From the NCBI GenBank assembly GCA_964355175.1, contig CAYHBZ010000001.1, positions 64,445 through 128,444 on the forward strand: a stretch of 64,000 nt of DNA, read 5' to 3'. This DNA comes from an uncultured Gammaproteobacteria bacterium. Lineage in GTDB: Bacteria > Patescibacteriota > Patescibacteriia > Magasanikbacterales > GWA2-37-8. Positions 3,716 to 55,909 of this stretch are shown piece after piece. How positions within the stretch are numbered: the first letter of the stretch is position 1; each line of letters begins with the position of its first letter. The position numbers were made by a program, and so were the translations under genes. The notes below the pieces were generated by a model. The model was not told the DNA's origin. It searched no databases and saw nothing but the letters and a program-made list of their open reading frames with translations.

Positions 3716-3825
3716 TTGTTTATATTAGATTTTTTAACGAATTTTCTAGGCAACCCTTGCTTTTTATTAAAAAATATGATAAGCTTCATTTCTTATTATA
3801 CTTTAATTAAATAAATAAGCAAATT

Positions 3826-4377
3826 ATGAAAAATTTTAGTCGACCAAGCAGCGGCGGCAGTAGAGATTTCGGCAAGAAAAGCTTCCCTGGCCGCGGTTTT
3901 GGTGGCGGTGGTGGCAGAAGCTTTGGTGGTGACCGTGGCGGTGATCGCGGCGGAGACCGACCAATGTTTTCGGCTACTTGCAGCAAATGTGGCAAAGACG
4001 CTCAGCTTCCTTTCAGACCAAGCGGTGACCGTCCGGTTTTCTGCAGCAACTGTTTTGAAACTGAAAAGAACTCCGCTCCAAGCTTTGGTGGCGCTTCCAG
4101 CTTTTCTCGCCCACCTCGCAGTTTCGACCGACCTAGCTTTGGCGACCGTCGTCCGACTCCTATGGCCGCTCCAGCTGTAAATTTGGACCAATTCAAAGCT
4201 CAATTTGAAGCCTTGAACACCAAGCTTGATCGTTTGATCCGCGCAATTGCTCCAAACGAAGCGGTTGTGTCTGAAGAAAAAGCTCCAAAAGCAAGTTTGG
4301 GTAGCAAAGCTAAAGCCGCTCCAGTAGAAGCTCCAGCAAAACCAGCTAAAAAAGCTGCTGCAAAAAAGAAGAAATAA
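3826..4377 (+). CDS. Gly/Arg-rich (RGG-repeat) protein with CxxC-x17-CxxC zinc ribbon and Lys/Ala-rich basic C-terminal tail
   Basis: GGDRGGDRGGDRP tandem repeats; CSKCG...PFRP...FCSNCF zinc-ribbon motif; C-terminal KAKAAPVEAPAKPAKKAAAKKKK; locally GC-rich codons; the antisense ORF is judged an artefact. Confidence 0.55.
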   Translation: MKNFSRPSSGGSRDFGKKSFPGRGFGGGGGRSFGGDRGGDRGGDRPMFSATCSKCGKDAQLPFRPSGDRPVFCSNCFETEKNSAPSFGGASSFSRPPRSFDRPSFGDRRPTPMAAPAVNLDQFKAQFEALNTKLDRLIRAIAPNEAVVSEEKAPKASLGSKAKAAPVEAPAKPAKKAAAKKKK

Positions 4378-9863: not shown

Positions 9864-10361
9864 ATGGATTTCTTAGCAATCTTCGCAGCTCAGTATTTAA
9901 TTTTTATAATTATTGCGGTCGGAATAGCTTTTTTCTTACACCGTCCGCGTGCCGAGAAAAGAGAAATTTTAGTTTTTTCTTTTATCACTTTGCCAATTAT
10001 TTTTATCGTTTCTAGAATTTGCGCGGCGTTGTATTACAACCCACGTCCTTTTGTGGATAATCAATTTCTGGCTTTAATACCACACAAACCAAACAATGGT
10101 TTTCCATCCGATCACACTCTGCTGTCCAGCGCTGTCGCCATGGTTGTCTGGCATTTCCACAAAAAAGTTGGTTATCTTTTATTGGCCTTGGCACTGCTCG
10201 TCGGTTTAGCTCGCGTCTATGTGGGCGTTCATCATTATTTAGATATTTTTACCAGTTTAATTATTAGTTTTGTGATAGTGTTGATAATAGAAAAAACAAT
10301 TTGGACAAAAATAAAATCACACCACAATTTTTTCGCCTTTTTTGATAGAATTAGATTCTAA
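9864..10361 (+). CDS. PAP2-family phosphatase (undecaprenyl-diphosphatase-like)
   Basis: PAP2 motifs PSDH (PSGH-like) and RVYVGVHHYLD (SR-x5-H-x3-D). Confidence 0.6.
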   Translation: MDFLAIFAAQYLIFIIIAVGIAFFLHRPRAEKREILVFSFITLPIIFIVSRICAALYYNPRPFVDNQFLALIPHKPNNGFPSDHTLLSSAVAMVVWHFHKKVGYLLLALALLVGLARVYVGVHHYLDIFTSLIISFVIVLIIEKTIWTKIKSHHNFFAFFDRIRF

Positions 10362-10423
10362 ATACTTAGAGAAAATGTCGCAAAAATAATTTTCTCTTGA
10401 CTAAATTTAATATAATTGATTTA

Positions 10424-10757
10424 CTTCCTTCCATCACGCGATGGTTCTCGCGTGAATGGAGGGCCGATGGCCTATAAAATCAAATGGGGACAAAGGAGCA
10501 ATCTGCGCTACCGTTGGACATGTACCCGCCCATGGGATCGTGGACCGTGCGGAGCGGAGAACGAAAAGCACCGGCAGAATTGCTGGAACTGCAATCGCGA
10601 ATTCAGTCCCGACCTCAGCAAAAAAGCAGCTTGATTATGGGCCTTGGCGGCCTCGATGCCACTCTCGCAGTGGCAGGGGTCGAGAAAACAACTCGCACCC
10701 CACATTAATAGACTATAATAGCCCATTGATGTGGAGAAAAGGCGAGTTGTTTTTGTT
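10424..10757 (+). ncRNA. GC-rich structured RNA candidate of unknown class (~330 nt)
   Basis: GC-rich and stop-poor on both strands, unlike the AT-rich flanks; multiple hairpins (CCAUCACGCGA/UCGCGUGAAUGG; GGCC-N-GGCC x2; GCCACU/AGUGGC); ends in a stem plus U-tract (gcgaguuguuuuuguuuu); no convincing tRNA-like domain, RNase P P4 or SRP motif found by eye; strand uncertain. Confidence 0.3.
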
Positions 10758-10786
10758 TTGACAAATTCATCCTGTTTTAGTATAAT
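10758..10786 (+). promoter_or_regulatory. perfect sigma70 consensus promoter TTGACA-17-TATAAT for proS
   Basis: exact consensus hexamers with 17-nt spacer immediately after the upstream U-tract; near-leaderless proS transcript predicted. Confidence 0.6.
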
Positions 10787-10810
10787 AACCCCGTATTTTT
10801 ATTGTATTTT

Positions 10811-12037
10811 ATGTACTATTCCAAACTTTTTGGCAAAACCAGTAAGACAGTTTCAGCTGACGAAGAGAGTGTTAACGCTCAATTTCTTATCAGAGGCGGC
10901 TTTGTAAGTAAACAGATGGCGGGGGTATACAATTATTTACCTTTAGGTTTGCGTGTTTTGACCAAAATTCAAAACATTGTGCGCGAAGAAATGACCGAGA
11001 TTGGTGGAAATGAAATTCTCATGCCGACTCTTACTCAGGAAGAAAGCTATAAGACCACCGGACGCGACAACATGGATGTGCTTTTTCATACTGAAGGTCC
11101 AGGTGGTGCCAAATATGTACTCAATCCTACTCACGAAGAAATTGTTACACCGCTCGTACAAAAATATACCTTTTCTTACAACGATTTACCATTGGCAGTT
11201 TTTCAAATCCAAAATAAATACCGTAACGAACCACGCGCCAAATCCGGTATCTTGCGCGGCCGTGAATTCAATATGAAAGATTTGTATTCTTTTCACACCG
11301 GCGAAGAAAGTTTAAATGAGTTTTACGAAATCGCAAAAAAAGCTTACCACAAAGTATACGCTCGTTTAGGGTTGGGCGATCTTACTGTTCTTACCTACGC
11401 CTCCGGCGGTGCCTTTAGTCGTTACTCTCATGAATTTCAAACTCTATGTGAAGTTGGAGAAGACACTGTTTATTTTTGTGAAAAATGCCGCATTGGTATT
11501 AATAAAGAAATTATTGCTGACCAAAATTCTTGTCCGGAATGTGGCAATGTGGATCTGGCAGAAAAAAAAGGTATTGAAGTTGGAAACATCTTTAAATTAG
11601 GCACTAGATTTACCGATGCCTTTGAATTCAAATATCTAGACGCCGAAGGTAAAGAACAGCCTATTCCAATGGGTTGCTACGGTATTGGTCCCTCCCGTAT
11701 CATGGGTACGCTTGTAGAAGTATTTCACGACGACAAAGGTATAAAATGGCCGGAAAGTGTGGCGCCTTTTAAATATCATCTATTAGCCCTAGGAAAAGAA
11801 GATGAAACCTTTGTTGAAGCGGAGAAGATTTATAAAAATCTGGTTTCACAAGGCGTTGAAGTGCTATACGATGATCGTCGCGGCGTGACTGCTGGTGAAA
11901 AATTTGCTGACGCTGATTTAATCGGTTTGCCAATTCGTCTTGTAGTAAGCAAAAAAACTTTAGCCGAAAACTCAGTAGAACAAAAACTTCGCAACGAAAC
12001 CGAAGCTAGCTTGATAAAAATATCGGATCTGTTATAA
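10811..12037 (+). CDS. proS: prolyl-tRNA synthetase, short bacterial type without INS editing domain
   Basis: N-terminus aligns to bacterial ProRS (SKLFGKT...ADEES...LIRGGF...GVYNYLPLGLRV); class II motifs; C-terminal zinc-binding CEKC...CPECG; the ORF track starts at TTG 10802, the first ATG is 10811. Confidence 0.8.
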   Translation: MYYSKLFGKTSKTVSADEESVNAQFLIRGGFVSKQMAGVYNYLPLGLRVLTKIQNIVREEMTEIGGNEILMPTLTQEESYKTTGRDNMDVLFHTEGPGGAKYVLNPTHEEIVTPLVQKYTFSYNDLPLAVFQIQNKYRNEPRAKSGILRGREFNMKDLYSFHTGEESLNEFYEIAKKAYHKVYARLGLGDLTVLTYASGGAFSRYSHEFQTLCEVGEDTVYFCEKCRIGINKEIIADQNSCPECGNVDLAEKKGIEVGNIFKLGTRFTDAFEFKYLDAEGKEQPIPMGCYGIGPSRIMGTLVEVFHDDKGIKWPESVAPFKYHLLALGKEDETFVEAEKIYKNLVSQGVEVLYDDRRGVTAGEKFADADLIGLPIRLVVSKKTLAENSVEQKLRNETEASLIKISDLL

Positions 12038-52945: not shown

Positions 52946-53488
52946 TTGCTTTGTTATATAATTGAGTATAATAACTCTTACACTCAGTTATATGTACTAA
53001 TTATGCGCTTAAATAAGACAAAATCAATTAGCTTGGCCTTTAGCACCCCTTTTGATCTTTTAATGAAAAAACTATATTCAGAAAAAGAAATGTCGACTCC
53101 GGAAATTTCTGATTATATTTTTAAACAAGTAAAAATTTTTATAACTCCAAGATCAATTCAAAGAGAAATAAAAAAACTTGGATTAATCAGAGGTCTGAGT
53201 GATGCTTTTAAACTGGCTATAAAGAAAGGTAGAAAATCCTACGAGCACCTCAAAAAACCCATTAAGTCTTCCCTACTGCGCCACGGAATCACTTTGAAGA
53301 CCAGATTTGAGGTTTTCCAAAGAGACAGCTCACGCTGTGTTATTTGCGGCAAAACTGCTCAAGATGATATACTAGTAGTCGATCATATCATTCCGGTGGT
53401 CAAGGGAGGGACAAACAACATAAAAAACCTCAGAACATTATGCCGAGAGTGTAACCACGGCAAGATGCTTTTAAATGAACATATATGA
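52946..53488 (+). CDS. HNH endonuclease with N-terminal HTH-like region
   Basis: CVICGKT...VDHIIPVVKGGTNNIKNLRTLCRECNHGK = HNH with Cys4 zinc site; alternative start ATG 53003; stop overlaps the next gene's start (ATGA). Confidence 0.7.
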   Translation: MLCYIIEYNNSYTQLYVLIMRLNKTKSISLAFSTPFDLLMKKLYSEKEMSTPEISDYIFKQVKIFITPRSIQREIKKLGLIRGLSDAFKLAIKKGRKSYEHLKKPIKSSLLRHGITLKTRFEVFQRDSSRCVICGKTAQDDILVVDHIIPVVKGGTNNIKNLRTLCRECNHGKMLLNEHI

Positions 53489-54438
53489 CCTCCAACCAAT
53501 TCCCACTTCCCTACTTTGATGATTTTATTTTAAATCTTAAAGCCAATAATTTTTCGGAAGAAACTGCGTATAATTATGAACGCGATTTAAAAACTTTTGA
53601 ATCTTTTTTAAGTAACGACATAAAAAAATCTTTTGACCAAATAAATAAAACTGATATTTTACGTTTTAAGGCTTATCTTGGCTCATCTGAACGCAAAACT
53701 GCTGAAGACAAAAAACCAGAAAAAAAGCTTAATAGCTACTCTATAAACCGCATACTTTCTTCAATGCGCTCTTATTTGAAATTCATGGAAGACATGGACC
53801 ATAAATCCCCAATATCCTCTAATGCAATAAAACTGCTTAAAAACGAGAAAAAAAGCGCGCGCGTACCGGAATTTGAACAACTTATCAAACTCATTGAAGC
53901 ACCGACAAAATATGAAGAAAAAATCCAAGTAGCATTGCGTAACCGGGCGCTACTGGAAACTTTATTCGCTACCGGCATGCGTATCTCCGAACTTTTATCT
54001 CTAAAAGTTGAGCAGATCGACCAAACTGGTAAAATATATATCATGGGTAAAGGTAAAAAACAAAGATTTGTCTATCTGACACCCCGAGCTCTTGTCCATT
54101 TAAAAAGTTATTTAGCCAAAAGAAACAGCACTTCAGATATGTTGTTTGTTCCTTACCGCGGCCGCAATAATAATGAAAAAAATAAAAAACTTTCGACTAA
54201 TTATTTACAATACAAAATCAAACAATACCGTCAGTTATTGGATATAAATTTGCCAATCAGCGCCCATACTTTACGCCACAGCTTTGCCACTTTTTTGGCA
54301 GAAAAAGGTGCCAATCCAGCCGCTATTCAAATCCTTTTGGGCCACGAATCACTTGATACCACCACTAGATATGTACATGCTTCAGATAGATATGCGGAGA
54401 AGACGCATCACGAATTTCATCCACTCTTTGATAAATAA
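53485..54438 (+). CDS. Xer-like tyrosine recombinase (XerC/XerD family)
   Basis: N-terminal SAM-like domain (ETAYNYERDLKTFESFL); catalytic R...HTLRHSFAT...LLGHESLDTTTRYVH with the Tyr. Confidence 0.75.
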   Translation: MTSNQFPLPYFDDFILNLKANNFSEETAYNYERDLKTFESFLSNDIKKSFDQINKTDILRFKAYLGSSERKTAEDKKPEKKLNSYSINRILSSMRSYLKFMEDMDHKSPISSNAIKLLKNEKKSARVPEFEQLIKLIEAPTKYEEKIQVALRNRALLETLFATGMRISELLSLKVEQIDQTGKIYIMGKGKKQRFVYLTPRALVHLKSYLAKRNSTSDMLFVPYRGRNNNEKNKKLSTNYLQYKIKQYRQLLDINLPISAHTLRHSFATFLAEKGANPAAIQILLGHESLDTTTRYVHASDRYAEKTHHEFHPLFDK

Positions 54439-54497: not shown

Positions 54498-54539
54498 AAT
54501 TTCGGTTGTCATCAGACCTCACTTCACTAATGCTGACTT

Positions 54540-54855
54540 CAAAAAATAAACATTAGGGAACGGTGAGGTCTGCGCGCAGCAAACTCCGCCCGCCCTCGGA
54601 AGGACCTTGTTGGTCATCCCACAACTTCCAGCACCGAAAGTGCCAGCTGGGCCTCTTGGGCACGAGCAAAAGTCACCTGCAGGCACAGGTGGCGCTCGTT
54701 GCGACGATGAGGCACACGCCCAGCGCAATTCGGACAGCCGGAATCGCGAGGAGGCCGAGCTGAAGTCAGGGGAGCATTGGAACGAAAAGGACGTGCTTTG
54801 TCTGCCATTGTGTTTCCTTCGGTAAACGGATACAGTGCGAGAAACAACCTTCAAA
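54540..54855 (-). ncRNA. GC-rich structured RNA candidate of unknown class (~310 nt), probably minus strand
   Basis: GC-rich and stop-poor on both strands between the terminators of the recombinase and ddl; minus-strand promoter TTGACT-17-TACTAT at 54856-54884; minus-strand 3' end has a UCUGCGCGCAGA hairpin then a U-run; no tRNA-like domain found by eye. Confidence 0.3.
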
Positions 54856-54928: not shown

Positions 54929-55909
54929 TTATAATGCCGCCGAAATTATCAAATCAAGCATTTTTGGAAACGATATCCCCGCTTTTCCAGCCGCTTCCGG
55001 AAGTAGACTAGTTCCAGTCATCCCAGGAATAGTGTTGGTTTCTATTATATATACTCGCCCATCATCCCCAAGAAAAAAATCACTGCGACTCATCCCCCGA
55101 CAGCCCAGCGCTTTGTGAGCGGTAACTGCTAATTCTTGCATCGTTTTATTCACATCTTCTGAAAAATCCGCCGGACAAATATGTTTGGATCCACCTGGCA
55201 AATATTTGGATTTATAATCATAAAATTTCCCCACTTGCGGCAAAATATGAGTTGGCGGCAAAGCAAACGCCTCACCTTTTTTCTCGAGCACTCCACAAGT
55301 AGCTTCTTGGCCTTTGATAAATTTCTGCGCCAATAGCCAAGGAAATTTTTTAATTGTTTTGTTCACTGTCTGTTTGAGATCATCTTCGGTTTTTATTATA
55401 CTTACCCCTACTGCCGATCCTTGATCTACCGGTTTCACCACACACGGATAACCGACACTAGTATTGATAGCCGCCAAAACTTCTTTCTGGCTGTTTTTCC
55501 AATTTTTGGCAGTGATATCAATAAAAGCCGGATGCGGCAAATGCCAAGAATAATATATCAGACCAGCATACACTTTATTCATACACAGCGCGCTACTTAG
55601 AGTATTTGGACCGGTATATTTGATACCCAGCGCTTCAAATATCCCTTGCACCGTACCGTCCTCCCCTGGCGTACCGTGCAAAGCAATAAATACTACATCA
55701 AATAATTTTCTGTCTTTATTTACAAAATCTACCAATCTTTTTTTATTTTTTATTTTCAAAACAAAATGATTATCTTGAGTCATTTCCACCAAACTCGGCG
55801 CATATTTTTTACGATCCAAATTATCAAAAACAGCTTGACCCGTGACCAGAGAAACTTCTCTTTCCGAAGATGACCCTCCGTACAATACCGCCACTTTTAA
55901 TTTCTTCAT
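54929..55909 (-). CDS. ddl: D-alanine--D-alanine ligase
   Basis: ATP-grasp; MKKLKVAVLYGGSSSEREVSL N-terminus; full-length Ddl homology. Confidence 0.85.
   Translation of the reverse strand: MKKLKVAVLYGGSSSEREVSLVTGQAVFDNLDRKKYAPSLVEMTQDNHFVLKIKNKKRLVDFVNKDRKLFDVVFIALHGTPGEDGTVQGIFEALGIKYTGPNTLSSALCMNKVYAGLIYYSWHLPHPAFIDITAKNWKNSQKEVLAAINTSVGYPCVVKPVDQGSAVGVSIIKTEDDLKQTVNKTIKKFPWLLAQKFIKGQEATCGVLEKKGEAFALPPTHILPQVGKFYDYKSKYLPGGSKHICPADFSEDVNKTMQELAVTAHKALGCRGMSRSDFFLGDDGRVYIIETNTIPGMTGTSLLPEAAGKAGISFPKMLDLIISAAL

Follow-up and report, generated by a model that had tools for sequence, protein, structure and literature searches.

The GC-rich element at positions 10424-10757 on the plus strand of a 64 kb stretch of Patescibacteria DNA (referred to below as the window) is most probably an unannotated gene for a small protein with structured untranslated regions (UTRs), and not a non-coding RNA (ncRNA). 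The probability assigned to this reading of the sequence is about 0.88. The element holds a conserved open reading frame (ORF) with the signatures of coding selection. The frame is preceded by a conserved promoter and by conserved Shine-Dalgarno (SD) motifs, and it is followed by a terminator whose helices covary. An initial annotation of the same DNA had recognized the element as a real feature and placed its bounds correctly, and had proposed an unclassified ncRNA as its identity. That central claim has to be given up, since the middle 168 nucleotides (nt) are an ORF, and its frame is the only one open in all seven full alleles.

The comparison is based on homologous loci gathered through homologues of ProS, the class II prolyl-tRNA synthetase encoded directly downstream, and through exact look-ups. 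They come from genomes of Magasanikbacteria-like Patescibacteria whose ProS proteins are 82-96% identical. Seven full alleles were obtained, namely those of the window and of loci L083, L085, L087, L090, L094, and L098. An eighth and longer version is found in L093.

A small ORF, 55-59 codons long and in one common register, is present in every copy. Frame +0 is free of stop codons in all seven full alleles, and no other frame is so open. The other plus-strand frames, which in the window could encode 101 and 74 amino acids (aa), were rejected as genes, being interrupted by stops in L087 and L098. The start ATG and the stop codon (TGA or TAA) align among alleles. In the window, a gap of 3 nt separates the SD sequence GGAGGG (10458-10463) from the ATG at 10467. 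All other alleles have GGAG or GAGG 6-10 nt upstream of their ATG.

The substitutions between alleles have the distribution expected of a gene. Differences at first, second, and third codon positions number 15/15/33 between the window and L087 and 16/15/32 between L083 and L087, and 15/17/34 was also obtained. Only one indel occurs among the first five alleles compared; it is 3 nt long and leaves the frame intact. Cysteine codons interchange synonymously between TGT and TGC. The ratio of nonsynonymous to synonymous substitution rates (dN/dS, by the Nei-Gojobori method) lies between 0.06 and 0.45. The residues M1, Y3, W7, S11, R14, W17, C19, R21, G29, N32, K34, Q37, C39, W40, C42, F46, S51, and K53 are invariant in all seven full alleles as aligned. 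C28 does not vary among the first four alleles and stands one column off in L094, where the alignment of the cysteines is ambiguous. Finally, the copy in L088 has been called as a 55-aa gene by the gene caller of one assembly (P0121).

Much of what had suggested an RNA is present in the sequence. The sharp rise in GC content is real, at 52.7% in the element compared with a window mean of 39.1%. In a 150-nt profile, the GC fraction is 0.25 at about 10250-10400, peaks at 0.57 at 10550-10700, and drops to 0.31 beyond. The hairpins and the terminal stem with its T-run exist as well. When the 351 nt at 10415-10765 are folded, the energy is -139.5 kcal/mol compared with -105.5 ± 5.8 for dinucleotide shuffles (z = -5.8), and none of 100 shuffles folds as well. 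A long stem closes the 3' end of the element and is followed by TTTTTGTTTT at 10750-10759. The opposite strand folds nearly equally well, with z = -5.5. The reported loss of stop codons from all six frames holds only in part. Stops are strongly depleted in the element, yet the stretch without any of them in all six frames is limited to about 10480-10600; stops are found at 10603 and 10615 in frame -0 and at 10475 and 10706 in frame +1. To take vanishing stops as the hallmark of a structured RNA is misleading here, where one open frame marks a conserved gene.

The coding sequence (CDS) of the window allele, folded alone, is unremarkable, with z = -0.7 against synonymous-codon permutations and z = -0.5 against dinucleotide shuffles. 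Thus, the UTRs account for the z of -5.8 of the whole element. In the other alleles, the z of the CDS lies anywhere between +0.1 and -4.9 and no pattern is conserved, and RNAalifold detects scant consistent pairing inside the CDS, where many of the predicted pairs are broken. The RNA-like look of the element arises because codons rich in Arg, Gly, Cys, Trp, and Ala, with GC-rich third positions, are combined with GC-rich helices in the UTRs. In the minimum free energy (MFE) fold of the window allele, the start-codon region AUGGCCUAUAAAAUCAA (10467-10484) pairs with the stop-codon region UUGAUUAUGGGCC (10630-10645) and so encloses the CDS. This pairing is weak or absent in other alleles and is not counted as a feature.

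Known RNA families do not match the element. Rfam 15 yields no match at the gathering score in the whole 64 kb window. The families considered by name, namely transfer-messenger RNA (tmRNA, RF00023), RNase P (RF00010/RF00011), the signal recognition particle (SRP) RNA (RF00169), 6S (RF00013), and the T-box (RF00230), all fail to reach this score. Even at E ≤ 10, positions 10200-10950 produce nothing but two chance matches, snoZ188 and CrcZ, both outside the GC-rich element proper, and Rfam finds no match in seven homologous loci. ARAGORN detects neither a transfer RNA nor a tmRNA in the window, which rules out tmRNA. The initial annotation had itself rejected tmRNA, RNase P, SRP RNA, and the T-box, and in this it was right. 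Two strings that it had pointed out do exist, and their identity is another one. The tag-like frame ending in ...KKAA-UGA forms the C-terminal end of the conserved ORF of 55 aa, and the T-box-like GUGGACCGUGCGG codes for D-R-G-P-C-G of the first cysteine knuckle.

The signals on both sides of the ORF belong to it rather than to proS. Upstream, the motif TTGACT-N14-TGnTT(A/T)A(C/T)T is shared by all seven full alleles and would act as the promoter of the small gene. A consensus scanner missed it because its -10 element lacks an A at position 2. A GC-rich hairpin occupies the 5'-UTR position in every allele, elsewhere shorter and of a different sequence than in the window, and it covers the SD completely in the window allele only. 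Behind the ORF, the alleles have in common a nested 3'-UTR architecture with an inner CCAC...GUGG, built from differing sequences.

Covariation analysis supports the helices of the terminator. Its hairpin measures 71 nt (10684-10754), with an outer stem of 11 base pairs (bp). In an alignment of eight alleles, 95.5% of cells are paired, compared with 39-47% in slid controls, and none of 500 shuffles reaches this value. Both sides have changed in 8 of 25 pairs. In L094, a compensatory change from A-U to G-C has occurred in the otherwise invariant outer stem. The T-run overlaps the -35 element of proS. Like ordinary intrinsic terminators, this one consists of a GC-rich stem directly followed by a U-run, shows compensatory changes, and stands at the end of a transcription unit. 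It differs from them in its unusual length, with nested stems, and in the overlap of its U-run with the -35 element of the next promoter.

The proS promoter, which the initial annotation had called perfect, indeed matches the consensus at all twelve positions. It is conserved in relatives with the small gene and in relatives without it (L026, L086, and L089). The conserved promoter of the small gene, the covarying terminator, and the proS promoter kept in relatives that lack the element together make the unit independent of proS, as the initial annotation had also proposed. The features of the unit are collected in Table 1.

Table 1. Features of the small gene and of its 3' boundary (window coordinates).
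Feature	Position	Strand	Basis
Promoter of the small gene: -35 TTGACT (10397-10402), 17-nt spacer ending in TGa (10417-10419, extended -10), -10 TTTACT (10420-10425)	10397..10425	+	sequence reading
5'-UTR hairpin, 15 bp; 5' arm CCUUCC pairs with the SD GGAGGG (10458-10463)	10427..10463	+	MFE fold
Coding sequence, ATG to TGA, 55 aa, MAYKIKWGQRSNLRYRWTCTRPWDRGPCGAENEKHRQNCWNCNREFSPDLSKKAA	10467..10634	+	ORF kept in 7 full alleles and in L093
3'-UTR hairpin: outer stem around inner GCCACU-CUCGC-AGUGGC	10648..10682	+	per-allele folds
Compound intrinsic terminator: outer stem AACAACUCGC/GCGAGUUGUU, inner hairpin of 13-14 bp, T-run 10750-10759	10684..10759	+	fold and covariation
Promoter of the neighbouring gene proS, TTGACA-17-TATAAT, 12/12 match; marks the 3' boundary of the unit	10758..10786	+	consensus scan

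From these features, the following course of expression can be proposed. The element would be a self-contained, monocistronic gene. A sigma-70-type promoter with an extended -10 would start transcription near position 10431. The leader of about 35 nt would fold into a stable hairpin, which in the window allele would occlude the SD. Translation of the ORF would yield a basic protein of 55 residues, whose four cysteines have the arrangement of a zinc ribbon. The 3' UTR of about 125 nt would form the nested hairpin and then the compound terminator, so that transcription would end just ahead of the independent proS promoter. The UTR hairpins may make the mRNA more stable, restrain its translation, and keep proS insulated. 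In the window, the neighbours of the element are a PAP2 phosphatase gene (9864-10361) upstream and proS (10811-12037) downstream. The gap before proS has been left without a gene call in L001 and L002.

The predicted product is classed as a small zinc-ribbon protein of the Cys4 type whose pattern resembles RanBP2, and it is filed outside PF00641 (Zn_ribbon_RanBP). The window protein is basic, with an isoelectric point (pI) of 9.8 and a grand average of hydropathy (GRAVY) of -1.42, and it has cysteines at positions 19, 28, 39, and 42. Its alleles have pI values of 9.8-10.5, GRAVY values of -0.9 to -1.4, four cysteines (five in L094), and three or four tryptophans. Zinc would be bound through C19, C28, C39, and C42. 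RanBP2-type fingers have the consensus W-x-C-x(2,4)-C-x3-N-x6-C-x2-C. They are mainly found in eukaryotes as domains of larger proteins, and those of RBM10 and ZRANB2 bind single-stranded RNA.

In the window protein, W17-x-C19 ... C28-G-A-E-N32-x6-C39-W-N-C42 reproduces the W-x-C ... C-x3-N-x6-C-x2-C of this consensus. The parts W-x-C, C-x3-N, N-x6-C, and C-x2-C are present in six of the seven full alleles; L094 has C-x4-N. The first two cysteines are separated by 8-9 residues, in contrast to the 2-4 of a RanBP2-type finger. PF00641 gives weak matches in four of eight alleles at E ≤ 1 (best E = 0.002) and none in the window allele. The best sequence match in the PDB is 2mxv, a RanBP2-type finger of RBM10, at E = 0.14, aligned over CG..N.KRR.KC..C. 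Size, charge, and the resemblance to RanBP2 make a nucleic-acid-binding role, probably with RNA as the partner, a tentative suggestion with somewhat less than an even chance of being correct.

Relatives of the protein are rare in sequence collections. A word-index search with the 72-aa frame that starts at TTG returned nothing. A profile of four alleles, compared with 5.8 billion clusters, retrieved only P0121. A full HMMER scan of 1.84 billion representatives retrieved P0121 and four long repetitive proteins, which were discarded as low-complexity noise by their Pfam content. Back-translated, exact-word patterns gave no confirmed relative in IMG/VR or, in two scans, in JGI metagenome contigs. 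Likewise, no match to phages or plasmids was found by blastn in "distant" mode. Neither the window nor 80 more distant proS loci contain a second copy, a search through the window and 82 proS loci met the element at the orthologous site only, and a scan of six-frame translations for the cysteine pattern revealed no paralogue.

Several observations weigh against the gene or against its assignment to a zinc-binding family. The window's own product is absent among the calls in a collection of 15 billion proteins, and P0121 is the only relative in the searchable protein sets. The GC content at third codon positions (GC3) is 0.56-0.75 in all alleles, well beyond the range of 60 genes of the window (0.364 ± 0.046, with a maximum of 0.44). 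The CDS is strongly structured in L087 (z = -3.4) and in L094 (z = -4.9), and selection at the RNA level on the coding part is possible. The window copy has no match in Pfam or NCBIfam, and PHROGs offers only matches at E ≥ 0.08. The resemblance to RanBP2 stays below the Pfam threshold in every allele. AlphaFold2, run from an alignment of two sequences, returned an unusable model, with a mean predicted local distance difference test (pLDDT) score of 48.9 and a predicted template modelling (pTM) score of 0.22. The fold and the zinc binding are therefore read from the cysteine pattern only.

The closest known parallels are the one-domain zinc-finger micro-proteins of prokaryotes, such as the small Cys4 proteins of Haloferax volcanii (PMC6562870). 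These also have about 50-60 residues and consist essentially of one Cys4 zinc-binding module. They too are encoded by stand-alone small genes that are usually missed by annotation, and their role is accessory or regulatory rather than enzymatic. However, there is no detectable sequence relationship between the two groups. The window family is bacterial (Patescibacteria) and very basic, and C-x8/9-C takes the place of CPxC in its first knuckle. Unlike the Haloferax volcanii type, it is known to date from a single locus in a single clade. The family appears to be new and narrowly distributed, and ordinary in kind as a zinc-finger micro-protein.

Within the clade, the element can be present or absent in close relatives. 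It is present in L083/L084 (ProS 96% identical to that of the window), L085 (93%), L087/L088 (91%), L090-L092 (89%), L098 (88%), and L094/L095 (82%). It is absent in L086 (93%), L026 (92%), and L089 (91%). L026 lacks the gene but keeps the last 50 nt or so of the element, which correspond to the 3' arm of the terminator. This remnant means that at least the absence in L026 is a deletion.

The longer version in L093 (42-323; ProS 88%) lies at the same place and has about 92 aa. It carries a long, very basic N-terminal extension, MGRGNSTPKMRRNASRNKKKGRDQRRAAAAKAHK..., and a divergent Cys4 core, WYC-x12-C-YGYN-x6-C-SRC. The motif W-x-C...C-x3-N-x6-C-x2-C...F is kept, and the same 3' hairpin and terminator follow. 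The contig begins just upstream of this ORF, and the true start of this version is uncertain.

The interval between an acyltransferase gene and proS is a variable slot in this clade (L083 1277-2029; L089 1548-2327; L094 683-2065; contig of P0017). Depending on the relative, the slot contains PAP2 alone, BacA alone, or PAP2 together with BacA and an S-adenosylmethionine (SAM) methyltransferase. Further arrangements are PAP2 with a methyltransferase and the small gene, and BacA with a 460-aa protein of unknown function and the small gene.

The small gene evolves much faster than its neighbours. Its protein alleles are 49-56% identical to the window protein, while the corresponding ProS proteins are 82-96% identical, and its dN is higher than that of proS by a factor of 5-15. 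At the nucleotide level, the genes on either side share 76-87% identity among relatives. Together with the repeated losses, this points to a fast-evolving accessory gene.

The history of the small gene also departs from that of its surroundings. The cassettes of L083, L085, and L090 have 88-95% nucleotide identity in the CDS, a dS of 0.08-0.27, and promoters and terminators that are 91-97% identical. In the same three loci, proS and PAP2 are only 82-86% identical, with a dS of 0.9-1.2. Conversely, the cassettes of the window and L083 differ by a dS of 2.4, which is saturated, though their ProS proteins form the closest pair. The simplest reading of this incongruence is that homologous recombination exchanges the cassettes and that the conserved promoter and terminator serve as its anchors. 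The pattern in L083, L085, and L090 suggests the recent recombinational spread of one cassette allele, or else chimeric metagenome assemblies. Strong constraint on synonymous sites is the alternative to exchange. On the sequence comparisons at hand, the small gene is probably exchanged in this way between related strains.

A more far-reaching proposal is that the gene is a hypervariable "allelic cassette" between a conserved promoter and terminator, in which versions of a RanBP2-like finger are swapped among related episymbiotic Patescibacteria by homologous recombination. The proposal is allowed by the divergence of the alleles, at about 50% identity compared with flanks of 76-87% at the nucleotide level, by the contrast in dS just described, and by the repeated loss. 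It is nevertheless unlikely. Such a pattern would suggest diversifying or frequency-dependent selection of the sort seen in conflict systems that involve phages, hosts, or competitors. In that case, the persistently foreign GC3 would be due either to ongoing import or to selection on the mRNA at the RNA level, and the protein would be a rare case of a stand-alone bacterial RNA-binding finger of the RanBP2 type.

A first rival explanation takes the element for a structured ncRNA of an unclassified family, whose GC-rich helices would have produced the open frame incidentally. Such an RNA could account for the strong fold on both strands, the high GC content, the depletion of stops in several frames, and the uncalled gap in L001 and L002. 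It could not easily account for exactly one frame that is open in all alleles behind a conserved SD and ATG, nor for the third-position excess, a dN/dS below 1, the in-frame indel, and Cys, Trp, and Asn residues kept through synonymous changes. Scant consistent pairing in the CDS, its ordinary z in the window, and the lack of a tmRNA or of any Rfam match within the element also speak against it, and this very improbable reading is already largely refuted by the coding signatures. Slightly less improbable, though still very unlikely, is a dual function. In this case, the transcript would serve as mRNA for the protein while its 3' part, a conserved stretch of about 110 nt with the hairpin and the terminator, would yield, once released, a regulatory small RNA (sRNA), or the GC-rich codons would be kept for a role of the RNA. 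The 3' module is the best conserved part, persists behind the divergent gene of L093, leaves its remnant in L026, and has helices that covary. Likewise, GC3 is steadily high in a genome at 0.36, the CDS of some alleles is strongly structured, and the cassettes of L083, L085, and L090 are far closer in dS than their proS genes. However, a conserved terminator beside a conserved promoter is to be expected without any sRNA, and recent recombination explains the low dS in one group of alleles equally well. Moreover, the structure of the CDS is unconserved, and no target or seed region can be named.

The remaining two proposals give the peptide or its leader a regulatory or toxic function, and the chance of either is minute. 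A leader peptide with an attenuator, or a T-box-like leader, could control proS, as a small ORF followed by a terminator lies directly upstream of it. Such control would have to pass a perfect promoter located between the terminator and proS, one that is kept in the element-less L026, L086, and L089. The peptide has only three prolines among its 55 residues, the ORF is conserved as that of a zinc-ribbon protein, and the supposed T-box sequence is part of the coding frame with no T-box match. A type I toxin is a small, hydrophobic, membrane-active peptide accompanied by an antisense RNA. In a locus of this kind, the mRNA would be untranslatable through its structure; the small gene, the occluded SD of the window allele, the possible pairing between its start- and stop-codon regions, and the presence or absence among close relatives recall such a locus. 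Yet the protein is hydrophilic and basic and has no transmembrane segment. No antisense RNA gene or promoter was identified, as the minus strand of the window, which the scan covered, offers only a weak 9/12 match to the promoter consensus, and the occlusion of the SD is unconserved in other alleles. A protein-coding gene with structured UTRs thus is the preferred reading.

Two other GC-rich places were noticed in the window. The first, at 54520-54850, reaches 64.5% GC in 200 nt and lies between a XerC/D-like integrase gene (53485-54438, plus strand) and ddl (54929-55909, minus strand). It contains a minus-strand ORF of 64 aa (54614-54808, MADKARPFRSNAPLTSARPPRDSGCPNCAGRVPHRRNERHLCLQVTFARAQEAQLALSVLEVVG). 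The ATG follows an AAGGAAA, and a hairpin and a T-run stand behind the ORF. Rfam gives no match inside this island at E ≤ 10, and its 64-aa ORF has no match in Pfam. The exact protein has been called once, in an ENA assembly (P0126). The island may be another uncalled GC-rich small gene, or an RNA. The plus strand carries nearly all genes of the window as far as about 54.4 kb, and the minus strand nearly all those beyond, which suggests a strand switch near this island at about 54.5 kb. The other place, at 3801-4298, is GC-rich because of a gene for a 183-aa protein (3826-4377, plus strand, 51% GC), which matches the "probable treble clef zinc finger" family PF23477 at E = 9e-17. Its GC3 of 0.39 is normal, unlike that of the small gene.

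A GC-rich, stop-poor, and strongly folding island in an AT-rich genome thus need not be an RNA gene, as the structure may be located in the UTRs. Patescibacteria have small genomes that are thought to be well catalogued, and an unannotated micro-protein family would now be added to them. The evolutionary behaviour of the gene hints at an accessory, possibly conflict-related role. Its fast evolution, several-fold faster than that of its neighbours, its patchy presence, and its foreign codon composition make it a reasonable candidate for an accessory nucleic-acid-binding factor that may take part in such conflicts.

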